Source of the DNA: Candidatus Pacearchaeota archaeon CG10_big_fil_rev_8_21_14_0_10_30_48 | GTDB taxonomy: Archaea; Nanobdellota; Nanobdellia; Pacearchaeales; GW2011-AR1 | Assembly (NCBI GenBank): GCA_002763155.1 | Contig: PFCU01000048.1 | Span: forward strand, 1 to 36,699 | Direction of reading: 5' to 3' | Length of the DNA stretch: 36,699 nt | Shown: positions 1 to 22,792 of the stretch, piece by piece | Numbering within the stretch: the first letter of the stretch is position 1 | How the letters are laid out: each line of letters begins with the position of its first letter | Notes under the pieces: model-generated | Databases searched by the model: none | The model's input: only the letters and a program-made list of their open reading frames with translations | Told to the model about the DNA's origin: nothing | Program-made: the position numbers and the translations under genes

Positions 1-390
1 CTTCCACATAATGAAAATTTTATTCTTACTCCTCAAACTGAAGAAGCTATATTTCTTTTAGGAGAAGCTACTCAAGAGTATTTTAAGAGATTTACAAAAA
101 ACAGACAAATTAGTTTTTATAATGTTAAACAATCAGAAAAAAATCAAACACTAGTTAATTATCTGTGGTTCGGTATTCTCCGTGGTGATCCTTATGTTGG
201 CGCTTGGGGCTGGGGCTTGGTCGACGTTGACAGGTCTTTCGGGGTGTTGGAAACTGTGCCGAAGGAACACGCGCCGGAAGATTTAGAGTCTTATATTTCT
301 AAGTTAAACCAAGAAAGAGATAATCAAATAGCTGAAGTTAACCAAAGGTATGAAACAGCGATGAGAACTTTGAAAGGCGAATTATTATAG
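1..390 (+). CDS. hypothetical protein, C-terminal part (5' end outside window)
   Basis: Frame +1 is open from nt 1 to TAG at 388-390 (...NYLWFGILRGDPYVGAWGWGLVDVDRSFGVLETVPKEHAPEDLESYISKLNQERDNQIAEVNQRYETAMRTLKGELL*). It is absent from the supplied track only because it has no start in the window. No family recognised. Confidence 0.45.
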   Translation, partial: LPHNENFILTPQTEEAIFLLGEATQEYFKRFTKNRQISFYNVKQSEKNQTLVNYLWFGILRGDPYVGAWGWGLVDVDRSFGVLETVPKEHAPEDLESYISKLNQERDNQIAEVNQRYETAMRTLKGELL

Positions 391-447
391 ATAATTATTT
401 AAAGATATTTTATGGTATCCTAGAATGGAAAAAAGAAACTTACCAAA

Positions 448-473
448 ATGTAAATTGCAGGAACAATTTACAT
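448..473. promoter_or_regulatory. perfect 10-bp inverted repeat ATGTAAATTG-N6-CAATTTACAT ending 1 nt before the ATG at 475
   Basis: Read directly. Arms are 448-457 and 464-473, which are exact reverse complements, with spacer CAGGAA. Candidate operator or start-occluding RNA hairpin. Confidence 0.4.
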
Positions 474-474
474 A

Positions 475-741
475 ATGGAAAAAGACATTGGAAAGATACC
501 AAAGAATGCTGAAACAGATATTTTAGTAAGAATTGATGATTTTGGTGGAAAGGTGGGAGTTACAATTAGAGAATTTGTTACAAGTGAGAAATATAAAGGA
601 TTTACAAAAGCTGGAACAAGAATTTCAGCGGAAAATTTTTCTGCTTTCAAAAAACTTATTAATTCAATTGATGAAAAGGAATTGAAATCCGCTAAATCAG
701 AAGTTACGGAAGAATCTTCTGAAGATGTTGAAGATTATTAA
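475..741 (+). CDS. PC4 / transcriptional coactivator p15-like ssDNA-binding protein with acidic tail
   Basis: DILVRIDDFGGKVGVTIREFVTSEKYKGFTKAGTRISAENFSAFKKLINSID follows the PC4 C-terminal domain pattern (..VRDFKGKVLIDIREYW....K.GRKGISL..EQW..L...I..ID). The C-terminal EESSEDVEDY acidic tail is SSB-like. Confidence 0.6.
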   Translation: MEKDIGKIPKNAETDILVRIDDFGGKVGVTIREFVTSEKYKGFTKAGTRISAENFSAFKKLINSIDEKELKSAKSEVTEESSEDVEDY

Positions 742-807
742 GAAGATTTTTAAAGTAGCTATTTATAATTTTTAAGAGGTGATAGCACCTCGGATGCTTA
801 ATTCTGA

Positions 808-1620
808 ATGAATAAAATGAACGAACAACAAGTAAAAGAACGTATTTTGGCTCATCTTAATTGGAATGAGAAAACTACAAGAGAAGAGTTGAGAGGATTG
901 GTAGCAAGTAGTTTGGGAATTGTTGATGGTGGTTCTGGACCAACTTTATTTAATAGATATCAATCTCATCATGGTGGAGATGTAGAAAATATTTTATTAG
1001 CCACAACCTATTTACCATTAAATCACCCAATTAATAAAGAAATTCCTAGACAATATTGGGAATTTCAAGAAGATATTTCAAGATTAAATTTCGGAAAATT
1101 AAGTGAAATAAATTTGAAGAAAAAAGTTGATGAGATTGGAAATGTTTCTCATAATATGGCTCGTGCTCTTTACGAAAGTTATTCTGATACTATTACTCCA
1201 GAAAGAGCAGAATCTTTACGAAGTGCATCTAGAAATATTGTAAATTATGGCGATAACTTTACAGTTAAGGAATTGGAATCCTTATATAATCAAGTAGCTA
1301 TTTCTCTTCATTTAGTGCGTATCTCAGATTATAAAGAATGTGGGTTTAAATTTGCAAAAGAAATATATAATATTGGCCGGAATTGGAAAGAAGATTTTAA
1401 ACATTTTTTCTCGCCTTTAATAATTAATAAATTGGCTCCAGATTATTTTGATACAGCTCTTGAATTTTATATTCAAGCTTATCAAGATTTGGATGGATTA
1501 AATAAGGATTTTTGTTTTGAATCAATTGCAAAGAATTTAAAAAAGACTGATAACAAAATTAATCCGAACAAAATTCCTCAAGGAAAGTTTAGAGAGGGAT
1601 TACAGAAATTGCTTTTGTGA
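808..1620 (+). CDS. hypothetical protein (270 aa)
   Basis: Long ORF in an AT-rich context with a TATA-like stretch upstream. No recognisable domain. Confidence 0.55.
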   Translation: MNKMNEQQVKERILAHLNWNEKTTREELRGLVASSLGIVDGGSGPTLFNRYQSHHGGDVENILLATTYLPLNHPINKEIPRQYWEFQEDISRLNFGKLSEINLKKKVDEIGNVSHNMARALYESYSDTITPERAESLRSASRNIVNYGDNFTVKELESLYNQVAISLHLVRISDYKECGFKFAKEIYNIGRNWKEDFKHFFSPLIINKLAPDYFDTALEFYIQAYQDLDGLNKDFCFESIAKNLKKTDNKINPNKIPQGKFREGLQKLLL

Positions 1621-1666
1621 TTATCTAAATACAAATATTTAAATAATTGTTGACATTATTTATTTT

Positions 1667-1963
1667 ATGGATAATAAAGAAAGATTAATGAAAGAAATAG
1701 AAACTCTTGAAATTAGAGCTAAATTTATTGGGAGAGGTTTTAAAAGTAGAAATTCTTTAACAGGAGAAGATACAAAATCTTATAGTGTTGTTCCAGAAAT
1801 ACTTCAACTTACTGATTCTGTTATTGGAGCTGATGGTTTAGCGATGAATATAGAAGAATGTGCTAGAAGAAGTAGATATAATAGGAATAGTAGTAAGATG
1901 ATTGGTCCAGCACCAAGAAAATATGGTCATCATGGTATTGCTATTCAATATAAAAATGAATAA
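1667..1963 (+). CDS. hypothetical protein (98 aa)
   Basis: ORF with an AT-rich TATA-like upstream region (TTTAAATAATT). No recognisable domain. Confidence 0.45.
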   Translation: MDNKERLMKEIETLEIRAKFIGRGFKSRNSLTGEDTKSYSVVPEILQLTDSVIGADGLAMNIEECARRSRYNRNSSKMIGPAPRKYGHHGIAIQYKNE

Positions 1964-2005
1964 AATTAAATGACCTGTTTCATAAATTATTAATTTTCAA
2001 AAAAT

Positions 2006-2296
2006 TTAATCTAATTCATATTTTTCCATTAATTTTATTGCTTGATGCCATTCTCTTATCGAAGGATAATCCCTATCATTATATGCTTTTTCAAATGAAT
2101 TAACTATTTGTTGTAAATTAGAATCTCTTTCTGTTTCATCAAGTTGATTAAGTTTGTCAAAAAGTTTTCTATAGACATGATTGAATCTTGATTTGATTTC
2201 TTCTCTAGTTCTATTATATCTTATTGAAATATTAATTGTTGCGAATGTTAGACTTCCAATTATAATTAAATTAATTAAATTCTCTTGATTTTCCAT
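2006..2296 (-). CDS. hypothetical small protein with N-terminal hydrophobic helix, last gene of the dph2 operon
   Basis: Its start ATG (2296-2294) shares one nucleotide with the dph2-C stop TAA (2298-2296), a TAATG junction. NLINLIIIGSLTFATINISI looks like a TM segment. Confidence 0.5.
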   Translation of the reverse strand: MENQENLINLIIIGSLTFATINISIRYNRTREEIKSRFNHVYRKLFDKLNQLDETERDSNLQQIVNSFEKAYNDRDYPSIREWHQAIKLMEKYELD

Positions 2297-3036
2297 TATC
2301 CAAATTCCTCCAAAGCCTTTGTTGGATTGAACGCTTCATGTAAATTAATTATTGGTTTATCTGTATTTACAATGTCATCAGTTCCAATTCGAGGACAGGC
2401 AGTGTTAACCCATGATTGAATAAATGTGTAATTTTCTAAATCGTTTAAATCTAATGAATTTCCTATGAAAATATAGGCTTTTTTACCTTCTTTTTCTAAT
2501 TGTTCTTTTAGTTTTTTTGCAGAATTAAAATATTGTTGTCCTGGTTTTATTGTGACTAAAATTCCAATAGTGGTTGAATTAACATACATTTTAAGATTTC
2601 TTTTCATTCGAGTTATTTGATTTTCAATAGAGTCTTTATCTAATTCTTCTATTGAATTTGACATTGGATTGAAAGTTGTAACTGGTTTTATTCTTTGAGT
2701 TTTTGCTTGTGCTAAGAGTAATGCTTTTGGATGAAATAAACCATCTCCGATGTATAAAATTAAATCAGATTCTTCAATTATTGAATTTTCGAAAGAATTT
2801 GAGTAACAATCGCAACCGAGGATTTGGATTTTATCCGAGGTTCTTTTTGCTTTAGTTGTGTTTACTTTAATTTCTAAAATTTCTAATTGATTAATAAATT
2901 CATCTAAATCTGTAAATTGTGTTGAAGCAAAGAGTGCGAGTGATTTTGTTTTGTGTTTTTTTAAATATTCTTTTAACTTTTCTGTTAATTCAATTTTTCC
3001 ATCCCATTTTGCGTCGATAAAAACTAGTTCTGTCAT
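2296..3036 (-). CDS. dph2: 2-(3-amino-3-carboxypropyl)histidine synthase Dph2, C-terminal fragment (domains 2-3)
   Basis: Collinear with Pyrococcus-type Dph2 from about residue 88 onward. QILGCDCYS and NTACPRIG correspond to the 2nd and 3rd 4Fe-4S cysteine ligands, and LYIGDGLFHP to the FIGSGIFHP motif. Confidence 0.85.
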   Translation of the reverse strand: MTELVFIDAKWDGKIELTEKLKEYLKKHKTKSLALFASTQFTDLDEFINQLEILEIKVNTTKAKRTSDKIQILGCDCYSNSFENSIIEESDLILYIGDGLFHPKALLLAQAKTQRIKPVTTFNPMSNSIEELDKDSIENQITRMKRNLKMYVNSTTIGILVTIKPGQQYFNSAKKLKEQLEKEGKKAYIFIGNSLDLNDLENYTFIQSWVNTACPRIGTDDIVNTDKPIINLHEAFNPTKALEEFG

Positions 3037-3037
3037 T

Positions 3038-3343
3038 TTAATGATTCCTTAACTTAACTAAACCTTTTATCATTTTGGCATGTAAGCTGTTCTCATGTTC
3101 ATACCTGTTTTTTTCATCAGATGCAAGAATTTCTCTTAAAATTACTTCTTTAGTTGCAATTGAGGTTTTAATAGTATCTTTACACAATTCTAATTCTACG
3201 TCATATCCCTTAATTTCTCTTTGATATAATTGAATACCATGTTCTAAAATTATTGCTTGTTTGTAACTTTTTAGGAAAGGAGTTTCATATTCTTTAATTG
3301 CCCATTCTCTTATCTCTGTTAATAATTTTTCTCTATCTATCAT
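3038..3343 (-). CDS. hypothetical 101-aa protein inserted between the two dph2 fragments
   Basis: The track starts this ORF at TTG 3361. I prefer ATG 3343-3341, because GGAGG lies 7 nt upstream and the ATG overlaps the dph2-N stop (TAATG). Its stop TAA at 3040-3038 is followed by 1 nt and then the dph2-C ATG. Helical-looking; no similarity to Dph2 or to inteins/homing endonucleases recognised. Confidence 0.55.
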   Translation of the reverse strand: MIDREKLLTEIREWAIKEYETPFLKSYKQAIILEHGIQLYQREIKGYDVELELCKDTIKTSIATKEVILREILASDEKNRYEHENSLHAKMIKGLVKLRNH

Positions 3344-3603
3344 TACCATTCCTCCTTCCAAAATCGGTTATGTCCAAATTGAATCATTAAATCGATTTTT
3401 AGAATGTCTAAGCCAAGAGGTAAATCGCAAGCGCCGAAGCAGTTTCCTAGAAAAATAAATGCTTTTGCTTCAGTGTTTTTTTCAATGTGTTCAATAATTT
3501 CATTGGCTTGGTTTTTTAGACCATCTGGTAATTGAATTAAAACTTGTTTAGATTCGCGAGATTTTATTTCTTCAATTACTTTGGGCAGTTCTAGTTTATA
3601 CAT
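3343..3603 (-). CDS. dph2: Dph2, N-terminal fragment (domain 1)
   Basis: MYKLELPKVIEEIKSRESKQVLIQLPDGLKNQANEI...GNCFGACDLP...MIQFGHNRF matches the Dph2 N-terminus (..KRVLIQSPEGLR...YGACD...LIHLGHSYM), including the first cluster cysteine (GAC). Confidence 0.8.
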   Translation of the reverse strand: MYKLELPKVIEEIKSRESKQVLIQLPDGLKNQANEIIEHIEKNTEAKAFIFLGNCFGACDLPLGLDILKIDLMIQFGHNRFWKEEW

Positions 3604-3673
3604 ATTTCCCTCACTTTTGACAGTTATTTAAAACTTCCGAAATGTTTATTATAGGATTTATTTCAATATTTAT

Positions 3674-4015
3674 ATGGAACGTTATTTAAATGATAAGATT
3701 ATACATGCTGGAGAAATGGGCCTTCAATTTTTGATGGAAGGAATGAAATATAAAGATAATAAAGATTTTAGTTCTGCAACTAGATCTTACGCTGTTTCTT
3801 GGGGCTTTAACTCTTATCAAGAAGATGCAGAGCTTATGGAAGTGTGTGATAAATTAATTGTGTCTTGTGGTGTTGATTCTGAAGACCTTCAATATTTTCA
3901 TGAATATGGAAGAGAAGTAGTAGATTATTGTTTTAATCTCGAGAATCTTGTTAATATTGTTTCTGGAAAACCTTTGGGAAAAAGGTTTAATCCTCCGAAA
4001 GGGATTTTTGATTAA
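3674..4015 (+). CDS. hypothetical protein (113 aa)
   Basis: ORF divergent from the dph2 operon. No domain recognised. Confidence 0.45.
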   Translation: MERYLNDKIIHAGEMGLQFLMEGMKYKDNKDFSSATRSYAVSWGFNSYQEDAELMEVCDKLIVSCGVDSEDLQYFHEYGREVVDYCFNLENLVNIVSGKPLGKRFNPPKGIFD

Positions 4016-4939
4016 TTAAATTCCTAAAATATTCTTCAATTCTTCAAGGGTTTTAGTTTGAGATAATTCTTTTCTTAATTTTGCGGCGCTTTGTTCTCCT
4101 TTTGTGAAAGAAATTGAATGGTTTTTTATTTGTTTAAAATTGACTTTGTGTTTTTTTGCTAATTTTAAATATTCTTTGAATTGATCAATTTTTGGTTTTG
4201 AATCGTATTTTCCTGTTTTTAGATAATCATTTATTTGTTTGAAAATATATGGATTTCCCATTGCTCCGCGAGCAATTAAAATGTAATCTACTCTTGATTC
4301 TTCTAAACGTTTTTTGAAATCTTCTGGAGTGAAAACATCTCCGTTTCCAATGACCGGAATTTTTACTGATTGTTTTACTTGTTTTATTATTTCCCAATCT
4401 GCTTGACCTGAATAGCCTTGTTTTTGTGTTCGGCCGTGAATAGCTATTGCTGAAGCGCCGTTTTTTTCAGCGATTTTGGCAACTTCAATTGCATTAGTGT
4501 TTTTTTCATCAATTCCTTTTCTGATTTTAATTGTAATTGGTTTATTAGTTGCTGAAGATAATTGTTTAACTAACTCTCCGATTTTTTTTGGAGATTTTAA
4601 TAACTCACTTCCTGCGCCTGTTTTGATAACTTTCCAGGCAGGACAGCCACAATTAATATCAATTATGTCGAAACTTTTTTCTAGGAATTTTGTTGCTTGA
4701 ATTAATTCTTCGACATAATTTCCAAATAATTGCACTTGCGATGGAGATTCAGATTTATCTATTGCCAGCATTTCTTTTGTTTTTTTGTCTTTTCTTACTA
4801 AAGCAGCGCTTGAAACAAATTCTGTACAAGTTAGTGCTGCGCCGTATTTTTTACATAGGGCTCTGAAAGCAACGTCGGTAACTCCTGCCATCGGAGAGAG
4901 AATTGCTTTGCCTTTTAGTTTTGGAAATTGTTGTTTCAT
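4016..4939 (-). CDS. dus: tRNA-dihydrouridine synthase (Dus family, FMN TIM barrel)
   Basis: ILSPMAGVTDVAFRALCKKYGAALTCTEFVSS, DINCGCP, IKIR.G, AIHGRT, IGNGDV are canonical Dus motifs. Confidence 0.85.
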   Translation of the reverse strand: MKQQFPKLKGKAILSPMAGVTDVAFRALCKKYGAALTCTEFVSSAALVRKDKKTKEMLAIDKSESPSQVQLFGNYVEELIQATKFLEKSFDIIDINCGCPAWKVIKTGAGSELLKSPKKIGELVKQLSSATNKPITIKIRKGIDEKNTNAIEVAKIAEKNGASAIAIHGRTQKQGYSGQADWEIIKQVKQSVKIPVIGNGDVFTPEDFKKRLEESRVDYILIARGAMGNPYIFKQINDYLKTGKYDSKPKIDQFKEYLKLAKKHKVNFKQIKNHSISFTKGEQSAAKLRKELSQTKTLEELKNILGI

Positions 4940-5362: not shown

Positions 5363-5740
5363 ATGAGAAAAGAGGATTTTAAGAAAAAACTTTCTTCTGA
5401 AGAATATAATGTCCTTAGAGAAAAAGGAACTGAGAGGCCGTTTAATTCTGAATTGTTGAAAGAGAAACGGAAGGGAAATTTTGTTTGTAAGGCTTGTGGA
5501 AATGTGATTTTTGATTCGAAAACGAAGTTTGATTCTGGAACAGGTTGGCCGAGCTTTTATGATGCTCGAAAAAATAGTGTTAAGATTAAAAATGATTTTT
5601 CTATGGGAATTCCTCGGAAAGAAGTTATTTGTTTAAAATGTGGTTCGCATCTTGGACATGTTTTTGATGATGGTCCGAAAGAAAAAACAGGGAAGAGATA
5701 TTGCATTAATGGTGTTGCGTTAGGGTTTAAGAAAAATTAA
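5363..5740 (+). CDS. msrB: peptide-methionine (R)-S-oxide reductase
   Basis: EKGTERPF, CKACGNVIF, GTGWPSF, CLKCGSHLGHVFDDGP, RYCING. The true start is taken at ATG 5363, because the track ORF begins at a TTG at 5267 that overlaps the upstream gene. Confidence 0.9.
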   Translation: MRKEDFKKKLSSEEYNVLREKGTERPFNSELLKEKRKGNFVCKACGNVIFDSKTKFDSGTGWPSFYDARKNSVKIKNDFSMGIPRKEVICLKCGSHLGHVFDDGPKEKTGKRYCINGVALGFKKN

Positions 5741-6171
5741 TTAGTTTTTGTTTCAACTTGCTCATATAAATCATAAAAATCAGATTGATTAAATCTTCTT
5801 ATTGCCTCTGAAGTAAAAGAATTTCCTAAATCTCCTAAAATTCTATGCGACACTGTTTCAGTTAAACTATCAAAATATTCGTAAGCGTGTTGAATCTGGC
5901 CAGATGTTAATTGTCCTTTTCTTCCGATATTTCTCATAGCCTCTTTAATTCCTTCAACAAATAAAGAAGTATATTCTTCTGGATTAACAGATTCAAATTT
6001 AAAATCTTCAAGTCTTGAAGCAAAATACTCTGCGAAACCGGCATAAATAGGATGATGGTTATTTCTTTGAAATTCTTCTACACTAACTCCTTCAAGAGAA
6101 TGATATCTTATCTCTCTTAATTCATCTATTAATCTTTCTTTTGGTAAGGCTGTTTCGTGATAATTTTCCAT
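5737..6171 (-). CDS. hypothetical protein (144 aa)
   Basis: ORF; ATG 6171 is preferred over the GTG 6240 extension, which overlaps the upstream gene. No domain recognised. Confidence 0.45.
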   Translation of the reverse strand: MENYHETALPKERLIDELREIRYHSLEGVSVEEFQRNNHHPIYAGFAEYFASRLEDFKFESVNPEEYTSLFVEGIKEAMRNIGRKGQLTSGQIQHAYEYFDSLTETVSHRILGDLGNSFTSEAIRRFNQSDFYDLYEQVETKTN

Positions 6172-6214
6172 TGGATAATTATTGGAGAATTCAACTATAT
6201 AAATTTTTAGATAA

Positions 6215-6805
6215 TTAACTAAAACTTTTCCCGCAACCACATTCTTTTGTTGCGTTTGGGTTTAAAAATTTGAAACCAGATTCTTTTAAAGAATCTATAA
6301 AATCAATTGTTGTTCCGCTAAGATATTCCATACTTTCTCTATCGACAGAAATTTCTAAATTATTTTGTTTGAATTTTAGGTCTTCTTTCGGGGCATTTTC
6401 GATAAGTTCTAAATCATAAGTATATCCTGAACAACCGCCTGCTAAGACACTAATTCGTAAGGTATTTTTCTCTTTACCTTCTGATTTAATTATTTCATTA
6501 ATTTTTTTAATGGCTTTATCTGAAAGTTTTAGTGAGAAGTTTTTGATTTCTTTTATTGCTTTCTTTTCTTGTTTTGAGTTTATTGCTTTGTTTAAATCTG
6601 AAACTAATTTATTTAATTCTTTTTCTGAAAATCCGTGACCTAAAACTCCTTGTTCCAAGGTTTCAAATCCAGATGCTCCACAACCAATACAGTGAATTCC
6701 GAATTCCATCATTATTTCTGAAAGCAGGTGTGCTTTTTCAGGATGTTCTGCTAAAATCTCCGCAATTACCATTTCTTTATTTATTATTTGTAATGTTTGT
6801 TTCAT
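6215..6805 (-). CDS. DUF1858 (redox-disulfide CxxC domain) fused to an IscA/HesB-type Fe-S cluster insertion domain
   Basis: N-terminal part: IAEILAEHPEKAHLLSEIMMEFGIHCIGCGASGFETLEQG (DUF1858 pattern). C-terminal part: LRISVLAGGCSGYTYDLEL...NPNATKECGCGKSFS (HesB/IscA signature C-x-GCG). ATG 6805 is preferred over TTG 6817. Confidence 0.75.
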   Translation of the reverse strand: MKQTLQIINKEMVIAEILAEHPEKAHLLSEIMMEFGIHCIGCGASGFETLEQGVLGHGFSEKELNKLVSDLNKAINSKQEKKAIKEIKNFSLKLSDKAIKKINEIIKSEGKEKNTLRISVLAGGCSGYTYDLELIENAPKEDLKFKQNNLEISVDRESMEYLSGTTIDFIDSLKESGFKFLNPNATKECGCGKSFS

Positions 6806-6844
6806 AGAATTATACAATTATTTGAGATTAAAAACTTAACTATT

Positions 6845-7285
6845 CTAATCCCTTAAAATATCTAATAATTTTTCGAGAACAACTGCCCCAGAAAGGTTTG
6901 GTTTTTTAGGTAAAAATACAGGTCTTTCTTCTCCAATTATATTTTTATAAGCTTTATTTAAAGCCGGTTTTAATTCTTCTTTTTCTAATATAGGAATATA
7001 ATCTTCTGTAATCCCAATATGAGAAATAAATTCATAAAGTCTTTTGTTAGAGATTCTTCCAGATTTAAGAGGTTTAGCAAAATCCTTTAATTTAGGAATT
7101 TCCCTTACAATTTCTTTCATTTCATCTGGAGAAAATTTAAAATATTCTTTCCTGACTTTTCCTAAAACATAATCTCTAAATCTTTTTGGAGTTCGATGTT
7201 CTTTTTGAACAATTTCTAATGCATAGGCTCGTAGTTCATCTTCACTAAGCCCATTTCTTGCAGAGGGTATAAAAGATATTCCCAT
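6845..7285 (-). CDS. hypothetical protein (146 aa)
   Basis: ORF co-oriented within the sod-to-IscA array. No domain recognised. Confidence 0.45.
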   Translation of the reverse strand: MGISFIPSARNGLSEDELRAYALEIVQKEHRTPKRFRDYVLGKVRKEYFKFSPDEMKEIVREIPKLKDFAKPLKSGRISNKRLYEFISHIGITEDYIPILEKEELKPALNKAYKNIIGEERPVFLPKKPNLSGAVVLEKLLDILRD

Positions 7286-7334
7286 TATTAACTATGATGT
7301 TTAATTTGATTTAAATAATTATAGATAATATAGA

Positions 7335-7640
7335 TTAATTAGTTCTCGCAATTTGATCTTGATTAATATATTTTTTTATGTTATCCCATATTCGATTGTT
7401 TATTTCTTCCTCAAATAATTTTTCTTCTTCAGTCATCCATGATTCTCCTAAAGCTATAATGAATAAGGCGTAATTTTCATTAAATTTTTGTCCTTTGTCA
7501 ATTTCTATTAAAAGATCAGTTAACCTTCGAATATCTGGTTGAGTGTAACTTCCTTTGATTCCTTCAGCTAATTCTTGAATTTCACTTTCTGAAGAACTAA
7601 TAATTCTAGAATAAATTTCTCGAGGGTTTGAAAGGTTCAT
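7335..7640 (-). CDS. hypothetical protein (101 aa)
   Basis: Starts 1 nt after the SOD stop codon, so it is probably co-transcribed. No domain recognised. Confidence 0.45.
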   Translation of the reverse strand: MNLSNPREIYSRIISSSESEIQELAEGIKGSYTQPDIRRLTDLLIEIDKGQKFNENYALFIIALGESWMTEEEKLFEEEINNRIWDNIKKYINQDQIARTN

Positions 7641-7641
7641 T

Positions 7642-8256
7642 TTAATTTCCTTTAAATAATTCTTCGACTTTTTTCCAATTTATCACCTTGAAAAAAGCAT
7701 TGATATAATCTATTCGTTTGTTTTGGTATTTTAAGTAATAAGCATGTTCCCAAACATCTAAACCTAAAATTGGGATGTTTCCGTCCATAATTGGAGAGTC
7801 TTGGTTTGGAGTTGAAGTTATTTCTAATTTTCTTTTATGATTTTTTATTAACCATGCCCAACCGCTTCCAAATCTCGTTAAAGCTATATTTGAAAATTTT
7901 TCCTTGAATTCTTCGAAAGAACCAAATGTTTTGTTAATTTCTTCAGATAGTTCTCCTTCTGGCTTGTTTTCTTTTCCTTCTGGGTTTGAAATCATTAATT
8001 CCCAGAATAAAGAATGATTTGCGTGACCTCCCCCATTGTTAATTATTGCTGTGCGTTTATCTTCTGGAAAGGAATTAATATTTGATAAAATTTCTTTTAG
8101 GGGTTTATTTTCTAAATCTGTTCTATTTAACGCTGCATTTAATTTGTCAACATAACCTTGATGGTGTTTTGAATGGTGGATTTCCATTGTTTTAGCATCG
8201 ATATAAGGTTCTAAAGCAAAATATTCATAAGGGAGTTTAGGTAATGTAAAAGTCAT
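7642..8256 (-). CDS. sod: Fe/Mn superoxide dismutase
   Basis: [59 protein letters not shown]. Confidence 0.95.
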
Positions 8257-11820: not shown

Positions 11821-12636
11821 GTGAAAATGAAATTGTTTATAGATAGCGCCAAAATTGAAGAAATTGAAGAGGCATATTCTTGGGGAGTTATTGAGGGGGT
11901 TACTACAAATCCTAGTTTAATGAAAAAGGCAGTTTCAGGTAAAGAAAATAATTTAGAAGATTATATTAAAAGAATTTTGAAAGTCGCGGAAAAAACTCCT
12001 GTTTCTTTAGAAGTTACGACAAGTGACTATGATTCCATGGTTAAAGAAGGAAAAACATTATATAAAAAATTTCATAAATTTGGGAATGTTTATATTAAGA
12101 TTCCTGTGAACCCTGCTTTTTGTGATGATAATAGTTGCAAGAGAAATGATTTTGATGGTATACGTGCGATTAGAACTTTAACTAAAGAAAAAATTCCGAT
12201 TAATTGCACTTTAATCTTTAGCCCAGAGCAAGCTTTGCTTGCAGTAAAAGCGGGAGCTAAATTTGTCAGTCCTTTTGTTGGAAGGGAAGATGATTTTATT
12301 CGCGAGAAAGCACATATTAAATTTAAGAAAGATGATTATTTTATTGGAGTTAAATCTAAAAAGAAAAATGATGCTGGAATTTCTTCTGGAATTGATTTAA
12401 TTAAGAAATGTAAAGAGATTATTTTTAAGAATAAACTAAAATCCGAAGTTTTAGCTGCAAGCATTAGAAATCCTCAACAACTGCGAGAAGTTGCGCTTGC
12501 TGGAGCTGATATTGCTACAATTCCATTTGAGGTTTTAAAAAAATTAATTGAACATCCTAAAACAATTGAGGGTATGAAAGATTTTAAGAGAGATATTGTT
12601 TTAGAGTATCAGAAAATTAGTGGGGTAAGGAAATGA
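11821..12636 (+). CDS. tal: transaldolase (type 3B / Fsa-TalC-like) with extra insertions
   Basis: MKLFIDSAKIEEIEEAYSWGVIEGVTTNPSL, VYIKIP (Schiff-base Lys region), INCTLIFS, SPFVGR. The protein is 271 aa versus about 215-220 aa usual. The start is GTG 11821 or ATG 11827. Confidence 0.85.
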   Translation: MKMKLFIDSAKIEEIEEAYSWGVIEGVTTNPSLMKKAVSGKENNLEDYIKRILKVAEKTPVSLEVTTSDYDSMVKEGKTLYKKFHKFGNVYIKIPVNPAFCDDNSCKRNDFDGIRAIRTLTKEKIPINCTLIFSPEQALLAVKAGAKFVSPFVGREDDFIREKAHIKFKKDDYFIGVKSKKKNDAGISSGIDLIKKCKEIIFKNKLKSEVLAASIRNPQQLREVALAGADIATIPFEVLKKLIEHPKTIEGMKDFKRDIVLEYQKISGVRK

Positions 12637-13916
12637 TAAAATTTTCATTTAAAGATTCATTGATTAAGGAAAGAGAGATTAATAAGTTAGCTAAAAAACT
12701 TCGCCCTGAAATTGAAGATATGCAAGAAGCTGAATTAAAAGAATATAACGACGATAGAGCTTCGATAAACTTACCTGATGATTTAGCAAGTTTGAAAAAT
12801 GTAAAAAGAGTAATAAGCGAATGTTTGAAACTTAATCCGGATTATTTAGTGGTTGTTGGAATTGGAGGAAGTAATCTTGGAACAATAGCTATTCAAGAAG
12901 CTGTCCTCGGAAAATTTTACAATCAATTAGATTCTAAGTTAAAAATATTTTATGTTGATACAGTTGACTCAGATTCTTTTGGTGATGTTTTAAGAATTTT
13001 AGAACCTGAACTTAAGAAAGGTAAAAAAGTAATTGTTAATGGGATTAGTAAATCGGGTAAAACAACTGAAACGATTGCAAATTTTGAAATTCTTGTTAAT
13101 TTGATTAGGAAATATGATAAGAATTATGAAAAATATATTGTGGTGACGACGGATAAATTTTCTCCGTTTTGGGATTTGGCTTTGGATAAAGCGTTTAATG
13201 TTTTGGAAATTCCTAGAAAAATTGGAGGACGTTATAGTGTTTTCTCTCCTGTTGGACTTTTTCCTTTAGGAATGTTAGGAATTAATTTAGAAAGATTATT
13301 AAGAGGAGCTAGAGAAATGAAAAAGATTTGTTTGAATGAAAATATTATGAAAAACCCTGCTGCAATGTCTGCTGCAATTGAATATGCAAATTATCACGAT
13401 GGTAAACACATTAGTAATTTATTTTTATTCTCAAGTGATCTAGAATCAATTGGAAAGTGGAATCGTCAACTTTTTGGGGAGTCTTTGGGTAAAAAAAATA
13501 AAGGGATTACGCCGATAACATCTATTGGAACTACAGACCTTCATTCAATGCTTCAACTTTATTTAGGCGGAAAAAATGATAAATTTACAACTTTTGTTTC
13601 TGTGAAAAAAGGAAATACTAAACTCGCTATGCCTAAATTGTCTGAATATGATTTACTTGTCGATGATATTCAAGGGAAAGAATTGGCTGATATTATGGAT
13701 ACGATTCTTCTTGGAGTAAAAGCTTCATATAAGATAAATAAAAGACCATTTATTTCAATTGAAATTCCAAATAAGAAAGCTTTTACAATTGGAGTTTTTC
13801 TACAATATAAAATGATGCAAACAATGTATCTTGGATTTCTTTTAGGAGTTAATTCATTTAATCAACCAGATGTTGAAAAATATAAAGAAGAAACGCGGAG
13901 GATTTTGAGGAGATGA
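12633..13916 (+). CDS. pgi: glucose-6-phosphate isomerase (short bacterial/archaeal PGI type)
   Basis: VVVGIGGSNLG, GISKSGKTTET, IGGRYSVFSPVGL, GTTDLHSMLQLYLGG. ATGA overlap with tal. Confidence 0.9.
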   Translation: MIKFSFKDSLIKEREINKLAKKLRPEIEDMQEAELKEYNDDRASINLPDDLASLKNVKRVISECLKLNPDYLVVVGIGGSNLGTIAIQEAVLGKFYNQLDSKLKIFYVDTVDSDSFGDVLRILEPELKKGKKVIVNGISKSGKTTETIANFEILVNLIRKYDKNYEKYIVVTTDKFSPFWDLALDKAFNVLEIPRKIGGRYSVFSPVGLFPLGMLGINLERLLRGAREMKKICLNENIMKNPAAMSAAIEYANYHDGKHISNLFLFSSDLESIGKWNRQLFGESLGKKNKGITPITSIGTTDLHSMLQLYLGGKNDKFTTFVSVKKGNTKLAMPKLSEYDLLVDDIQGKELADIMDTILLGVKASYKINKRPFISIEIPNKKAFTIGVFLQYKMMQTMYLGFLLGVNSFNQPDVEKYKEETRRILRR

Positions 13917-14980
13917 AACCAAGACTACTTATTGAGCCTAAAGATGTTAAACCAAGTTTTCCAGAGTGGAAAGTTATTAGCACGATAAATCCGGCAGTTA
14001 TTCGTCGTGATGATGGGAAAATTTTGATGTATGTTCGAGTTGCAGAACAAGATAAAAAACATTTGAAGGGGGAGGTTTGTCCTGTGATAACTTCTTATGA
14101 TGGTCTTACAGTTAGTACTGAAAAAGTTTTTGTACATCAATTGAAGAGGAGAAAGAAAGAAATTATTTTTTTGAAAGATGGAACTTGTAGACTGATGCAT
14201 ATCTCTCATTTGCGTAAGGTTTTATTGGATGAATCTGGAATGAATGTTTTAGAGATTGATGATGAACCGACATTTACAGGAATTGCTGGTGAGAGTGATT
14301 ATGGGGTTGAAGATCCGCGGTTTACAAAAATAGGGAAAAAATATTATATGACTTATGTTGGAGTCTCAAAGAATGAAGGAGTTTCGACTTATTTAGCTGA
14401 ATCAGATGATTTGGAAAATTGGAAACGGTTGGGAATTATTTTTAGAGAACAAAATAAAGATGCTTTTCTTTTTCCTGAAAAAATTGATGGGGAATATGTT
14501 GCGTTTAATCGACCTGAGAGTTCATTTCATTTTTCAAAGCCTGGAATTTGGATTTCTTATTCTAAGGATTTAATTTATTGGGGAAGAGATTTGAATATTG
14601 CTCGTCCTCGAGAGGGTTCGACTTGGGAGAATGAGCGAATTGGAGGAGGTGCGCCTCCGATTAAGACTAAAAAAGGTTGGTTGTGTATTTATCACGGCGT
14701 TAAATATATTGATGGTAAACAGACTTACAGTGCTGGCGCGATGCTATTGAATTTGAAACACCCTAAAAGAATTATTGCGCGTTCTTCTCCGAAAAAACCA
14801 TTGTTTGGTCCTAGTGAAAAATTTGAGAAAAAAGGTTATATTAATCAAGTTGTTTTTCCGACAGCCGTGGTTCCGACTTTAGATGGAAAAAGTTTATTAA
14901 TTTATTCTGGAGGAGCTGATAGGGTTGTTTCTGTAAGAAAAATTAAACTTAAAGAAATATTTAATCACTTGAAAGTATGA
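13913..14980 (+). CDS. glycoside hydrolase family 130 protein (beta-mannoside phosphorylase/hydrolase family)
   Basis: NPAVIR, YGVEDPRFTKIGKKYYMTYVG, NKDAFLFPEKIDGEYVAFNRP, WENERIGGGAPPIKTKKGWLCIYHGV, YSAGAMLLNLKHPKR. ATGA overlap with pgi. Confidence 0.85.
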   Translation: MKPRLLIEPKDVKPSFPEWKVISTINPAVIRRDDGKILMYVRVAEQDKKHLKGEVCPVITSYDGLTVSTEKVFVHQLKRRKKEIIFLKDGTCRLMHISHLRKVLLDESGMNVLEIDDEPTFTGIAGESDYGVEDPRFTKIGKKYYMTYVGVSKNEGVSTYLAESDDLENWKRLGIIFREQNKDAFLFPEKIDGEYVAFNRPESSFHFSKPGIWISYSKDLIYWGRDLNIARPREGSTWENERIGGGAPPIKTKKGWLCIYHGVKYIDGKQTYSAGAMLLNLKHPKRIIARSSPKKPLFGPSEKFEKKGYINQVVFPTAVVPTLDGKSLLIYSGGADRVVSVRKIKLKEIFNHLKV

Positions 14981-15711
14981 GTGTTGAAGAACAATTTACA
15001 TTTCTTGAAGTTACTAAAGCAGAAGAAGTAGCAAAGTTGGCTGCTAAAATAGTAGCGAATAATATTAAAGAAAATCCAAAAATTGTTCTCGGATTAGCGA
15101 CTGGAAATACTATGATTTCATTTTATAGAGAATTGGTAAAATATTATAAAAAGGGATTTATTTCTTTTTCGAGGGTTAAAACATTTAATTTAGATGAGTA
15201 TTATGGGTTGGATTCTAAATCGAAAACTAGTTTTAGAAATTTTATGAATAAAAATTTATTTGATAAAGTTGATATTAAAGAAAAAAATATTAATTTTTTA
15301 GATGGGGATGTTAAAAATTTTGAAAAAGAATGTAAACGATATGAAAATAAAATAAAAGAAGTAGGTGGGATTAATTTGCAAATTTTAGGTATAGGAGTTA
15401 ATGGACATATTGGTTTTAATGAGCCAGGCTCTTCTTTTACAAGTGTTACAAGAAAGGTGAAATTATCTCAATCTACGCAAAAAGTAAATGCTAAGGAATT
15501 TAGGGGAAAGGAAATTCCTAAATATGCTTTGACGATGGGGATTAAAACAATTCTTAGTGCAAATAAAACAATTCTTTTAGCAATTGGCGGGGAAAAAGCG
15601 AGAATTATTAAAAAAACTCTCGAAGGAAAAATAACAAAAAAGGTTCCAGCAAGTGTTTTAAGAAAACATAAAAATATTTTAATAATAATTGATTGCAAAG
15701 CAGGCGAGTAA
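14977..15711 (+). CDS. nagB: glucosamine-6-phosphate deaminase
   Basis: VLGLATGNTM, FNLDEYYGL, ILGIGVNGHIGFNEPGS, ALTMGI. ATGA overlap with the GH130 gene. Confidence 0.85.
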   Translation: MSVEEQFTFLEVTKAEEVAKLAAKIVANNIKENPKIVLGLATGNTMISFYRELVKYYKKGFISFSRVKTFNLDEYYGLDSKSKTSFRNFMNKNLFDKVDIKEKNINFLDGDVKNFEKECKRYENKIKEVGGINLQILGIGVNGHIGFNEPGSSFTSVTRKVKLSQSTQKVNAKEFRGKEIPKYALTMGIKTILSANKTILLAIGGEKARIIKKTLEGKITKKVPASVLRKHKNILIIIDCKAGE

Positions 15712-15742
15712 TATTTATAACTTCTATTTATTAATTATTTAA

Positions 15743-16336
15743 ATGAAGAAAGCATTAGTAATTGTTGCACATCCGGACGATGAAACTATTTGGATGGGGG
15801 GCAGTATTTTAAGGAATAAAAATTATGATTGGACGATTTTTTCTTTATGTCGTAAAAGTGATGATGACCGAAGACCCAAATTTGAAAAAGTTTGCAAAGA
15901 ATTAAACGCTAAATTTTTGATGGGAGATTTGGATGATGAAGAATTGAATGATTTAAAAATTGATTATGTTGAAGAATTTATTATTTCTTATTTAAAAAAT
16001 AAAAATTATGATGTGATTTATACCCATGGAGAGAATGGAGAGTATGGGCATAAAAGACATAAAGAGACCCATAATGCAGTTGTTTCTCTTGTGAATAAAA
16101 ATATTTTAAAAACTAGGGAATTAATTTGCTTTTCTTACATTAATAGTAATGAATATGTTCTGGGGTTTGATTTGAAAATTGCAATTCCTAATGAAAACTC
16201 TGAAACGATAATTAATTTAAACCAAGATGAACACAAGAAAAAAATGGAAATTGTTTCAAATATTTATGGATTTGATGAAAACAGTTTTGAAGTTTTATGT
16301 TGTAATAAACAGGAAGCATTTGAAAAAATAAAATGA
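15743..16336 (+). CDS. PIG-L / LmbE family N-acetylglucosaminyl deacetylase
   Basis: ALVIVAHPDDETIWMGG and YTHGENGEYGHKRHKETH (zinc-binding His/Asp pattern of the PIG-L family). Confidence 0.8.
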   Translation: MKKALVIVAHPDDETIWMGGSILRNKNYDWTIFSLCRKSDDDRRPKFEKVCKELNAKFLMGDLDDEELNDLKIDYVEEFIISYLKNKNYDVIYTHGENGEYGHKRHKETHNAVVSLVNKNILKTRELICFSYINSNEYVLGFDLKIAIPNENSETIINLNQDEHKKKMEIVSNIYGFDENSFEVLCCNKQEAFEKIK

Positions 16337-17508
16337 TAGAAGAATTAAAGAACAAACCGCTTAAAATTTTAGTTTTATATCCTCATCCTCCGGAACCGGA
16401 CGGAGTTAGCATGCAAGGGCATTATTTAATTAAGGGTTTGAGAGAGCTTGGAGCAGAGGTTATGCCTTGTGATAGAGCTGATAATTTACAAAAATTGCAT
16501 TCCTATAAGGCGTTTAATCCAGATGTTACAATTGGAATTGGGTATTGGGGAGATTCGCCAGAAGTTCTTTTTAGTCCTATGAATCATGGATTGAAAACAG
16601 TTCCTTGGTTTAATGCAGACGGTTGGGTTGCAAATTATCATGATATCTTGAATAATTTACCATTAATTGTTGCAACAAGTAATTGGGTGAAATCAACTTA
16701 TATGCGAGACGGTGTAAAAGGAGATAATATTTATGTTTGTCCTATTGGTTTTGATTCAGAAACTTTTTATCCAATTTCTAAATCAGATGAAAAAATAAAA
16801 AAATTGCGCGATTTACTTGGAATTAAAGATGATGAAAAAATGATTTTTACAGCGGGTGGAGATGTGACAAGTAAAGGAGCTCAGGAAATGTTTAAGGCTT
16901 TGGCAAAGATCGATAAAGATTTTCCGAATTGGAAATATGTGCTAAAAACTTATGATAGTTCTTCTGCTGAAAATCATGGTGTTGAAGAAGAACAGTTAAT
17001 TGAAGAGTTAGGATTAGATAAGAATAAGATTATTCGGCTTTCTGGTAAATACACTCCAGAATTTATGGCGATGTTGCTTAATGCTTGTGATATTTATGCT
17101 GCGCCTTCACGTCTTGAAGGTTTTGGAATGATTCAGCTTGAAGCGCAGGCTTGCGGGAAACCGGTTATATCAATAAATGTTGGCGGACCGAAAGATGTTA
17201 TTATCCACGAGAAAACAGGATTTTTAGTTGATGTTGCAACTGAAATTAAATTAGATGGCGAGTGGGCATATGATTGGATGGGCTTTGAAGAGAAGCATAT
17301 GATTAATTTTCCGAATCCAAAAACTTTTGCTTATAGGGCAGACATAAATCAACTTGCTGAGTATACTTTAAAATTATTAGTAGATGATTCTCTTAGAGAG
17401 TCTATAGGTCGAGAAGCAACAAAGCACGCTTTAGATAATTTTCATTATAAGGTAACTGCTAAAAAGATGTTGGATTTGATTAAGGGGAATGTTTTGAAAT
17501 TACAATAA
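16333..17508 (+). CDS. glycosyltransferase family 4 (GT-B, retaining)
   Basis: C-terminal EGFGMIQLEAQACGKPVIS...GGPKDVIIHEKTGFLV (E-x7-E type GT4 signature). ATGA overlap with the PIG-L gene. Confidence 0.8.
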   Translation: MIEELKNKPLKILVLYPHPPEPDGVSMQGHYLIKGLRELGAEVMPCDRADNLQKLHSYKAFNPDVTIGIGYWGDSPEVLFSPMNHGLKTVPWFNADGWVANYHDILNNLPLIVATSNWVKSTYMRDGVKGDNIYVCPIGFDSETFYPISKSDEKIKKLRDLLGIKDDEKMIFTAGGDVTSKGAQEMFKALAKIDKDFPNWKYVLKTYDSSSAENHGVEEEQLIEELGLDKNKIIRLSGKYTPEFMAMLLNACDIYAAPSRLEGFGMIQLEAQACGKPVISINVGGPKDVIIHEKTGFLVDVATEIKLDGEWAYDWMGFEEKHMINFPNPKTFAYRADINQLAEYTLKLLVDDSLRESIGREATKHALDNFHYKVTAKKMLDLIKGNVLKLQ

Positions 17509-20840: not shown

Positions 20841-21578
20841 TTAACGAAGTTTGGTTAAAAGTGAAGCTCCGATAAGTCCAACGTTGTCTCCAAGCTTTGC
20901 ACGAACTATCGGAATTTTCCTTTTGATTAAATCATTTTTGATTAAAATTTTTCTTATCTCAGAATATATTGATTTTACCGAAGATAAACCTCCTCCAATA
21001 ATAACTATTTCTGGGTCAAGAACATATGAGATATTTAGAATTGCGATTCCTAAATCTTCTCCAATTTGATTATACTTTTTTGATTTTTTGTTTGTTTGAT
21101 ATTTTTTTTCTAACATTTTATTATTTAATATCATATGGCCTGGCTCTCCTGCAAATCCATTTCCATGATATAACTTTCTATCAATCATAATTGCTCCACC
21201 AATTCCTGTGCCTAATGTTAAAAGAAGAAAATCCTTTTTATTTTTTCCATTCCCATAATATAATTCACCAAGACCTGCGCAATTTGCATCATTATCTACA
21301 TAAACTTTAGATTTGTATTTTTTAGAAATAATTTCTCTAATATCTATATTTTTTAAATCAATATTGGGGTTTCCATAAATTTTTCCATCTTTTACAAATC
21401 CGGCTGTTCCAATGCAAATGACTTTTGGTTTTGGGTAAGAATCTATTAAATCAAATAAAGAATTAATTATTTGTTTTTTTGTTTTTGGAGTTGTAATTGT
21501 TTGTTTATTTTTTACTTTTCCATCTGAAACTTCTGCAATTCTTATATTAGTTCCACCAATATCTAAACACAATACCAT
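20841..21578 (-). CDS. ROK-family sugar kinase (short form without the CxCGxxGC zinc motif)
   Basis: LCLDIGGTNIRIA, VDNDANCAGLGE, LTLGTGIGGAI, GEPGHM, IIGGGLS. The usual zinc-binding Cys cluster after GH is replaced by a Lys-rich segment. Confidence 0.75.
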   Translation of the reverse strand: MVLCLDIGGTNIRIAEVSDGKVKNKQTITTPKTKKQIINSLFDLIDSYPKPKVICIGTAGFVKDGKIYGNPNIDLKNIDIREIISKKYKSKVYVDNDANCAGLGELYYGNGKNKKDFLLLTLGTGIGGAIMIDRKLYHGNGFAGEPGHMILNNKMLEKKYQTNKKSKKYNQIGEDLGIAILNISYVLDPEIVIIGGGLSSVKSIYSEIRKILIKNDLIKRKIPIVRAKLGDNVGLIGASLLTKLR

Positions 21579-21646
21579 CTTTTATTATGATAAAGATAAG
21601 TTTTTTAGATTTAAAAAATGTTGTTTGTTGATTTAAGGAGTTATTA

Positions 21647-22396
21647 TTATAATTCTTTTAGAATTTGATCCATTAATTGTCCTGCAGGTAAGACTTTGCC
21701 TTGAAGATTAACATAATAATCTCCTTTCAACCGTGTTTTATCTGCTGTTATTTTAATTTCAGAACCACTGAGTAATTCTTTGTCATTGTAGTTATCTCCT
21801 AATGCTAGAACCTGATTTTTTGATAGTTTAAGTTGTTTGATTAGATTTTTTAGACCGGTTAGTTTTGTTTGAATATTTTTTATGCCAATATCGTAAGATT
21901 CATCGTTCCAGATGCAATAAAGATTTTTTTCTTTTTTCATGAGGTTTTCAATTGAGATTACTCTCTTCGTGCAATGAATTGTTATAATAAATTCTTTGGG
22001 TTCAAATCCTTTGATATTTTTGTTTTTGATTGTTTGTAATTTTGGTAAGACTTTTTTTAGTTTTTCAAAACTGTTGACATTTTGGTAAAATTTTCCTTTA
22101 ATCCATGTTGCGCTTCCATTTTCATAGGTTAGAGAGACAAATTCTAAAATTTCTTGAAACATTTCTTGAAGCATGTACAAACTTCGGCCTGAAGTGATGT
22201 TTATTTTAAATCCTTTTTTGTTTAGTTTTTTTATTTGTTCTATAAGTTCTTCTGGAATTTTTTTTGTTTCAAGAGTTGTTGTGTTTCCAACTTGTTTAAT
22301 TTTTGTTCCTCTTGGAACTAAAACTCCATCTACGTCAAATACTAAGAGTTTGATTTTTTGGATATCTGATTTTTTTAATTCAGTTATAGGTTTCAT
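21647..22396 (-). CDS. HAD-IIB (Cof-type) sugar-phosphate phosphatase
   Basis: LLVFDVDGVLV (motif I DxD), ITSGRS (motif II), K...LGDNYNDKELL (motifs III/IV). Confidence 0.75.
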   Translation of the reverse strand: MKPITELKKSDIQKIKLLVFDVDGVLVPRGTKIKQVGNTTTLETKKIPEELIEQIKKLNKKGFKINITSGRSLYMLQEMFQEILEFVSLTYENGSATWIKGKFYQNVNSFEKLKKVLPKLQTIKNKNIKGFEPKEFIITIHCTKRVISIENLMKKEKNLYCIWNDESYDIGIKNIQTKLTGLKNLIKQLKLSKNQVLALGDNYNDKELLSGSEIKITADKTRLKGDYYVNLQGKVLPAGQLMDQILKEL

Positions 22397-22749
22397 TTTC
22401 TGTTAAAATCATCTTCTAACCGTTTAATGTCTTTTTCATTGAAATTTCCGAACGATATTTCTAGAAATCTTGATGGTTTAGATAAACCCCTTGTTCGATG
22501 TTTAATATTTTTAGGAACAAAGACACTATCTCCTTTTTTTACTAACCAAGTTTTGTTTCCGACAGTAACTTTTGCAGGGTTATCTAAGAAATGCCAGTAT
22601 TCGTTTCGATTTTTGTGAATTTGTAATGAATTTCGTTTTTTTGGATTTATTGTTAGAATTTTCACAGAAGTTTTTTCGTTGAGTGTGAATTGTTCGAACT
22701 CGCCCCATGGACGTTTGTCTACTAGATGATTTTTCAACCTCTTTTTCAT
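22393..22749 (-). CDS. stand-alone type II phosphomannose isomerase cupin domain
   Basis: RPWGEFEQF...VKILTINPKKRNSLQIHKNRNEYWHFL...VTVGNKTWLVKKGDSVFVPKNIKHR...EISFGNFNEKDIKRLEDDFNR matches the C-terminal PMI domain of ManC-type enzymes. ATGA overlap with the HAD gene. Confidence 0.7.
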   Translation of the reverse strand: MKKRLKNHLVDKRPWGEFEQFTLNEKTSVKILTINPKKRNSLQIHKNRNEYWHFLDNPAKVTVGNKTWLVKKGDSVFVPKNIKHRTRGLSKPSRFLEISFGNFNEKDIKRLEDDFNRK

Positions 22750-22762
22750 GATTAGATTAAAT

Positions 22763-22777: not shown

Positions 22778-22792
22778 GTCTTTTTAGAATAG

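Follow-up and report, generated by a model that had tools for sequence, protein, structure and literature searches.

The contig PFCU01000048.1 of a Pacearchaeota archaeon, 36,699 nucleotides (nt) long and referred to below as the window, carries on its minus strand at 3603-2006 four open reading frames (ORFs) arranged end to end. The first and the third of them encode the N-terminal and the C-terminal part of the diphthamide-synthesis enzyme Dph2, the second is an embedded ORF without any family match (the insert), and the fourth, ORF4, encodes a small protein with a hydrophobic N-terminal helix. The arrangement is best explained as the two-gene Dph2 already known from related archaea with an ordinary lineage-specific orphan gene carried as a passenger between its halves, a reading to which a probability of about 0.78 was assigned. 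Archaeal Dph2 is a dimeric enzyme which uses S-adenosylmethionine to transfer a 3-amino-3-carboxypropyl group to a conserved histidine of elongation factor 2 (EF-2).

Dph2 encoded by two adjacent genes

The N piece of 86 amino acids (aa) matched positions 1-57 of PF01866 with 38.5 bits and the 246-aa C piece matched positions 73-289 with 125.2 bits (cut-off 33.2). The domain model TIGR00322 gave 73.3 and 124 bits, respectively (cut-off 35). The whole-protein equivalog TIGR03682 was matched by the N piece at positions 2-64 (55.7 bits) and by the C piece at positions 73-292 of 308 (129.7 bits); its cut-off of 202.8 was reached by neither piece singly, as expected for fragments. Judged by these matches, N and C together are archaeal Dph2 (arCOG04112), 2-(3-amino-3-carboxypropyl)histidine synthase, in a two-gene form.

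The concatenated pieces were colinear with the full-length Dph2 structures of M. smithii (6q2d, E 4e-31), Ca. Methanoperedens (6bxm, E 2e-28) and P. horikoshii (3lzc, E 7e-26). Residues 1-319 of the concatenate could be aligned to 6q2d, the N piece corresponding to residues 6 to about 89 of that structure, so that the two pieces cover the whole enzyme, as an earlier reading of the DNA letters (the sequence-only reading) had claimed. The same reading had put the break after the GH motif, and the structure-sequence alignment located it there, roughly at residue 86/87, in the loop past the conserved motif. The gap at the junction in comparison to the three structures is 1-3 residues; the figure of about 7 unaccounted residues, given previously, was an artefact of the local ends of hidden Markov model matches. 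An AlphaFold2 model of the concatenate had a predicted local distance difference test (pLDDT) value of 75.5 overall, and its top 15 matches in the PDB were all Dph2 (E 4.5e-18 to 2.6e-13, template modelling scores normalised to the query 0.59-0.74).

The ligands of the [4Fe-4S] cluster in P. horikoshii Dph2 are Cys-59, Cys-163 and Cys-287 (PMC11048331). All three are kept in the window, in agreement with the sequence-only reading: GAC59D is located on the N piece, and LGC75D and AC214PR (positions 161 and 300 of the concatenate) on the C piece. In the alignment with 3lzc, C59, C161 and C300 of the concatenate fall on the motifs GACD, LGCN and ACPR, respectively. The C piece also has the GDGxFHP motif. 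Among 82 relatives the cysteines are near-invariant, C59 and C75 being present in 82/82 and C214 in 80/82 sequences, the other two of which are truncated. The ratio of nonsynonymous to synonymous substitution rates (dN/dS) relative to the genus-level relative L003 was 0.029 for the N piece and 0.086 for the C piece, which places both pieces under strong purifying selection.

The search with the C piece gave 856 homologous proteins, the best 120 of which were 238-258 aa long, 57-99 % identical and, by name, proteins of Pacearchaeota/Nanoarchaeota metagenome-assembled genomes (MAGs). The loci compared were 80 GTDB species-representative loci (C piece 38-68 % identical), being part of 551 GTDB loci with a C-piece relative, and a few metagenome contigs. 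Both pieces were held by 85 non-redundant loci from MAGs of Pacearchaeota and Woesearchaeota, some of them named Nanoarchaeota, with C pieces 38-98 % identical. Whether relatives split dph2 at a homologous point had been set as a check, and in 85/85 loci they do: the N piece ends in a stop codon, the C piece has its own ATG, and the halves are adjacent or near-adjacent. The low dN/dS values, the retained cysteines and the common break point agree with the view that this is a natural two-piece Dph2 and not a decaying gene. As far as this comparison of loci goes, the split is clade-wide and old, and older than the insert in the window.

In the loci with abutting halves the spacing ranged from -7 to +79 nt, for example -7 (an ATGGTAA overlap), -1, 0 and +1 (TAA-A-ATG), and all three kinds of stop codon were used by the N piece among relatives. 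Since frame offsets and spacings vary and all three stops occur, fusion of N and C by a programmed frameshift or by readthrough was ruled out, and separate, coupled initiation of the pieces is therefore favoured. The proposal that a Shine-Dalgarno sequence is always embedded in the N tail was also rejected, GGAG or GAGG being found there in 45/85 loci.

The N piece in the window terminates in ...GHNRFWKEEW-stop, which is typical of the clade, and its last residue is Trp in 80/82 relatives. The position aligned to this Trp (window 3348-3343) in full-length Dph2 is occupied by Tyr (6q2d), Glu (6bxm) or Leu (3lzc). The ...(A)TGG-TAA at the end of the N piece makes an overlapping ATG, and in 17 loci the C piece (MV...) starts there. 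Protein reassembly and start context are candidate reasons for the retention of this residue.

Two-gene Dph1/2 with separate N-terminal and C-terminal genes was described in Pacearchaeota and Woesearchaeota by Narrowe et al. 2018 (PMC6143161), and Dombrowski et al. 2019 (PMC6349945) listed split Dph1/2 for Parv-, Pace-, Woesearch- and Altiarchaeota. The window, with the same enzyme, lineages and adjacent N and C genes, is another example. The novelty suggested for the locus thus does not extend to the split itself; of genes between the halves, no published mention was found. Neither the exact break point, nor the terminal Trp with its stop/start coupling, nor genes between the halves came up in the passages of the two papers retrieved by text search. 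By the same measure, cargo between the halves of the kind seen in the window (22 % of loci here) is a difference from the published cases. The modestly new elements are accordingly the precise conserved break point, the terminal Trp of the N piece and the assorted genes between the halves in about one fifth of the species.

The embedded gene and the dph2 junction in relatives

The insert is closely joined to its neighbours. The N piece and the insert share TAATG at 3345-3341, the insert and the C piece are linked by TAA-A-ATG at 3040-3034, and TAATG at 2298-2294 connects the C piece with ORF4. The last three genes are each preceded by a Shine-Dalgarno-like sequence lying within the tail of the preceding gene, namely GGAGG at 3355-3351, 7 nt 5' of the ATG of the insert and within the last N-piece codons, AGGA at 3049-3046 for the C piece, and GGAGG at 2311-2307 for ORF4. 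An alternative in-frame ATG for the insert is possible at 3349. The sequence-only reading had given the same four-ORF layout, the three junction strings, the GGAGG of the insert and the membrane-anchored 96-aa ORF downstream of the C piece, and all of them were confirmed, the ORFs and junctions at identical coordinates.

A word-indexed search of 5.8 billion proteins returned only two clusters of homologues of the insert, at 90 % and 59 % identity, and a full HMMER profile search of 1.84 billion representative proteins found none beyond its own cluster. Ten contigs from independent assemblies of JGI and ENA encode the exact protein in an identical layout. The 59 %-identical allele was listed in 47 blocks of the collection; the 24 contigs examined came down to four distinct places, again with an identical layout. 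Both forms were always located between dph2 N and C. An assembly error, against which a check had been advised, is thus excluded for the layout of the insert.

Relative to L003 the insert shows 59 % aa identity, in comparison to 97-98 % for the flanking Dph2 pieces. The proportions of nonsynonymous and synonymous differences (pN and pS) were 0.22 and 0.45, and dN/dS was 0.39 (0.03-0.09 for the N and C pieces). The AlphaFold2 model of the insert reached a pLDDT of 88.9 and comprises three predicted helices (residues 4-17, 23-44 and 49-99). Because pN is lower than pS, several motifs are conserved and the helical structure is predicted with confidence, the insert is regarded as a real, fast-evolving gene. 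Its GC content of 27 % and its GC content at third codon positions (GC3) of 0.18 are close to those of the neighbouring genes, i.e., the composition is native.

No match above threshold was obtained for the insert in Pfam, NCBIfam, PHROGs, PADLOC and PDB sequence searches, and Foldseek found no significant neighbour in the PDB, the best hits being generic MIT-like helical bundles (E 0.76). Several identities were tried and discarded as sub-threshold noise: Ph1570 (18.8 bits vs cut-off 27), the TscA antitoxin (PF23767, 17.9 vs 27 bits, and NF047365, 17.4 vs 90 bits, over 22 residues only, E 0.0035) and LINE-1 ORF1p (E 0.14). Electron donors of the Dph3/Kti11 type (CSL zinc finger) have a four-Cys metal site. 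The insert has a single cysteine, no metal-binding motif and no zf-CSL match in Pfam, and this identity was rejected as well.

The distance between the dph2 halves is below 200 nt in 66 of the 85 loci (78 %); in 63 it is below 80 nt and in three it is 133-153 nt without a convincing ORF. The remaining 19 loci (22 %) hold one or two ORFs there, always co-oriented with dph2 and belonging to at least 10 unrelated kinds. The relatives that come next by C-piece similarity (L087-L089, 69-70 % identity) have their halves 4-50 nt apart, and the junction of one of them reads AAGGAGGAATGG-TGA-A-ATGAC, from which the window differs solely by the insert placed between the stop codon and 'A-ATG'. The N-piece tail and the C-piece head are the same as in insert-less relatives. 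Whether relatives carry the same insert had also been set as a check: its homologues are confined to the lineage of the window, 66/85 loci have no gene between the halves, and other lineages have unrelated genes there.

One kind of cargo is a low-molecular-weight phosphotyrosine-phosphatase/ArsC-like gene (PF01451, CxxNxGRS motif), present in six species at three separate positions of the tree. Its start codon is often the ATG contained in the ...GAATGGTAA tail of the N piece (MVM...). To our knowledge, no functional link connects it to diphthamide synthesis. A 2H phosphoesterase, an NYN-domain gene (Table 1) and several mutually unrelated orphans are among the other cargo, and the cargo-bearing loci are scattered on the neighbour-joining tree of N+C. 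It was also considered that the small helical inserts of relatives form one fast-evolving family. This was not supported: only L018_i2, L019 and L001_i2 were weak reciprocal best matches (E 0.0075-0.11, 2,470 ORFs), and the insert of the window was linked to none of them.

The neighbouring joins of the conserved SOD-FeS-Dus-dph2 block served as control junctions, an insertion being defined as at least 200 nt. Insertions were found in 6/18 loci at SOD|FeS, 13/19 at Dus|N and 4/8 at FeS|Dus. The dph2 junction as an insertion hotspot was thus ruled out, the control junctions gaining insertions at least as often.

Eight loci (L032, L033, L038, L042, L046, L058, L083 and L089) have spacers of 46-153 nt with no convincing ORFs. 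At L058:5961-6003 the junction motif TAATGGTT occurs in three copies, which hints at local duplication as one route of junction growth.

ORF4 belongs to no known family by Pfam and NCBIfam searches. Behind its hydrophobic N-terminus it has a conserved C-terminal motif, S-I/L-x-E-W-x-x-A-K-x-L-M-x-K-Y. Homologues occur in L003-L006 at 65 % identity and in L021 at 34 %. In L021 the gene is found on the downstream side of dph2C at a distance of 2.6 kb, and in other relatives dph2C is followed by different genes. Its dN/dS relative to L003 was about 1.07. Since ORF4 is unlinked to dph2 in L021, the only distant relative that has it, it is not a conserved Dph2 partner; like the insert, to which it is unrelated, it is a small orphan. 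ORF4 (at 2048-2060) and the insert (at 3302-3314) have an exact 13-nt repeat in common, CCATTCTCTTATC, which reads 'IREW' on the minus strand, and 'AIK' and 'YE' come shortly after it in either protein. With about 0.3 such pairs expected by chance in the stretch, the repeat is probably coincidental.

Weighing the explanations for the insert

According to the favoured explanation, a known two-gene Dph2 plus an orphan passenger, a single transcript would run from the TATA-like A/T-rich element near 3630 (TTTTAAATAA at about 3634-3625) to the T6 run at 2004-1999, which may be an archaeal oligo-T terminator at the end of the four genes. A GAGGG Shine-Dalgarno-like sequence at about 3612-3608 precedes the ATG of the N piece. 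Translation of the four cistrons would be coupled, N and C being made as separate polypeptides from one mRNA. The two are expected to reassemble non-covalently into the normal Dph2 fold, with the [4Fe-4S] cluster ligated by two chains, through Cys59 of N and the two cysteines of C, and the reassembled protein presumably dimerises like single-chain Dph2. In comparison to the single-chain enzymes of P. horikoshii (3LZC/3LZD), Ca. Methanoperedens (6BXM) and M. smithii (6Q2D), the colinear sequence, the three Cys ligands and the predicted fold are alike, and the differences are the break past the GH motif at about 86/87 and the cluster that would be shared between two chains.

The lineage of the window would then have gained a small fast-evolving three-helix gene between the stop codon of the N piece and the pre-existing C-piece start, 'TAA-A-ATG'. 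This gene would use the GGAGG in the N-piece tail, be co-expressed as a passenger and be dispensable for Dph2 activity. Because the halves are independent cistrons, the dph2 junction behaves like any intergenic site.

Two observations weigh against this explanation. The co-orientation of the insert, its tight coupling and its purifying selection would also be expected of a lineage-specific accessory factor of Dph2. The AlphaFold2 model of the concatenate is weak at residues 55-90 (pLDDT <50), including the junction, because the alignment used contained no N-piece homologues, and its rendering of the break is consequently unreliable. The search of the 36.7-kb window found no second dph2, no EF-2 gene and no dph5.

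The first alternative is that the 101-aa protein, perhaps with ORF4, is a lineage-specific accessory subunit, or an assembly chaperone for the Dph2 fragments or for cluster delivery. Besides sharing the strand of dph2 and being coupled in translation to both neighbours, the insert has been kept in an unchanged position on dozens of contigs, which represent three or more diverged alleles, its dN/dS of 0.39 is below 1, and the well-folded helical bundle predicted for it could plausibly serve as a protein-binding module. However, it is missing from 66/85 loci, including the closest relatives outside the genus-level group, and unrelated genes fill the slot in other lineages. Its sequence has one cysteine but lacks a metal-binding motif, its evolution is about 10 times faster than that of the Dph2 pieces, and the N tail and C head, unchanged in comparison to insert-less relatives, give no sign of co-adaptation. 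This alternative is considered unlikely. The idea of one or two new accessory subunits put forward by the sequence-only reading therefore did not hold up, given the absence of the insert from 78 % of loci, its lack of distant homologues and fast evolution, and the unlinked ORF4 in L021.

It was also considered that the split-dph2 junction is a protected slot of guaranteed expression which captures lineage-specific genes, possibly born de novo, and that the insert was perhaps recruited to modulate split-Dph2 assembly or EF-2 modification. Such a slot would fit the data because there are at least 10 co-oriented unrelated cargo families, ORF-less spacers of 46-153 nt in eight loci, and an orphan of native composition. 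We regard it as quite improbable.

The insert could further be a selfish element or its remnant (a free-standing homing endonuclease, a fragment of an insertion sequence, or a toxin-antitoxin module) which split or invaded dph2. In phage Aeh1 the nrdA gene was split by the mobile endonuclease gene mobE, which both caused the split and donated interaction tails to the resulting 'genes-in-pieces' (PMC3045599), and 'fractured genes' combine split inteins with an embedded endonuclease ORF (Dassa et al. 2009, PMC2677866). The position of the insert within a conserved gene recalls both systems. As in Aeh1, an essential enzyme is encoded by two functional cistrons with a gene between them, and the halves would reassemble after translation; as in fractured genes, the halves lie on one strand around a free-standing ORF. 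The 22-residue TscA-like match (E 0.0035, 17.9 bits vs cut-off 27) also points in this direction, if weakly.

In contrast to nrdA/mobE, the dph2 split is older than the insert and most relatives are split without it, and no nuclease (HNH, GIY-YIG, LAGLIDADG and similar), transposase or intein domain was found in the insert by Pfam, NCBIfam, PHROGs, PADLOC and fold searches. Unlike fractured genes, the dph2 halves contain no intein sequence and leave no space for split-intein halves, and the embedded ORF is not an endonuclease. Since no intein sequence is present and N+C is colinear with intact Dph2, there is no trans-splicing of the halves. No terminal or direct repeats bracket the insert, GC and GC3 are native, and no paralogue or other copy was detected in the window or among the 1.84 billion representative proteins. 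A selfish origin is therefore very improbable. The suggestion of a selfish insertion that the enzyme tolerates survives only in its second half, 'tolerated insertion' being an apt description, and the recognisable homing endonuclease or insertion-sequence remnant that had been envisaged was found neither as a domain, nor as a fold, nor by repeats.

That the arrangement is an artefact (a chimeric assembly or a frameshift from sequencing) or a decayed dph2 with an intact copy elsewhere is effectively excluded: the architecture is identical on 10 independent contigs carrying the exact protein and on further ones carrying its alleles, 85 loci from different assemblies have one break point in common, dN/dS is 0.03-0.09 with invariant catalytic residues, and the junctions show three kinds of stop codon and varied spacings.

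Nanoarchaeum equitans has split informational genes (reverse gyrase, AlaRS and others), also cited in PMC6349945, whose halves are often unlinked and whose proteins reassemble. The context of genome reduction in DPANN archaea and the reassembly, which for dph2 would be similar, are shared with that system; the difference is that the dph2 halves stay adjacent or near-adjacent in 85/85 loci.

For annotation and for estimates of genome completeness, the two dph2 pieces, which other genes sometimes separate by up to 0.8 kb, should be treated as one functional marker in Pacearchaeota and Woesearchaeota. A warning about two-piece dph2 as a marker was already given by Narrowe et al. (PMC6143161), and embedded genes make the pieces even easier to overlook. 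The embedded ORF itself is best taken as an example of the high flux of small orphan genes at gene junctions in reduced genomes, and not as a new component of diphthamide synthesis.

Neighbourhood of the locus

Table 1. Features of the dph2 locus, cargo genes between the dph2 halves of relatives, and the SOD/Fe-S region of the window
Feature	Position	Strand	Remark
Putative operon leader	3604-3640	-	Putative, read from sequence
dph2 N piece, 86 aa	3343-3603	-	PF01866, TIGR00322
Embedded orphan ORF, 101 aa (306 nt)	3038-3343	-	ATG at 3343; without family match
dph2 C piece, 246 aa	2296-3036	-	PF01866, TIGR03682
ORF4, 96 aa	2006-2296	-	Hydrophobic N-terminal helix; no known family
T6 run	1999-2004	-	Directly after ORF4 stop; putative, read from sequence
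PF01451 cargo	L001:3272-3694, L009:3014-3418, L014:5583-5999, L017:5582-5998, L020:1793-2209, L023:2000-2431		Between the halves
2H phosphoesterase cargo	L081:5450-6001		2'-5' RNA ligase superfamily, PF13563
NYN-domain cargo	L084:5333-6001		PF01936
SOD	7642-8256	-
orf101	7335-7640	-	Family-less
orf146	6845-7285	-	Family-less
DUF1858+HesB Fe-S assembly gene	6215-6817	-
orf167	5737-6240	-	Family-less

The comparison with L003 over window positions 300-4100 revealed mosaic divergence. Nucleotide identity was 89-100 % in Dph2C (2285-2985), with 96-100 % in all but one 100-nt bin, and 93-100 % in orf270 (808-1620); it was 85-95 % in the N piece, 80-87 % in Dus/orf113, 81-84 % in ORF4 and 68-85 % in the insert. 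Synonymous divergence (dS) changed from about 0.67 (Dus, N piece and insert) to 0.10 (C piece) and 0.07 (orf270). This pattern suggests recombination tracts with a putative breakpoint near the boundary of the insert and the C piece. The orphan genes stand out as divergent islands in the same comparison.

Further small genes of this kind were noted nearby. On the minus strand at 5737-8256, co-oriented and tightly packed small ORFs without family lie between conserved genes (Table 1). In L087-L089 SOD abuts the Fe-S assembly gene; in the window such ORFs separate the two. A 380-nt segment at 1624-2005 with a 98-aa family-less ORF (1667-1963, plus strand) is missing from L003-L006, which have instead an extra gene of 242-266 aa beside Dus. 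Gains and losses of small genes occur frequently among close relatives.

The rest of the window (11821-17508, 20841-23554, 25317-26210, 28150-28827 and 31955-35146) contains a set of sugar and pentose-phosphate genes comprising transaldolase, PGI, GH130 phosphorylase, two 6-phosphogluconolactonase-like genes, ROK kinase, DeoC aldolase, a 6PGDH-like gene, transketolase and G6PDH. Gene sets of this type are characteristic of fermentative Pacearchaeota. Also encoded there are glycosyltransferases and a DEAD-box helicase.

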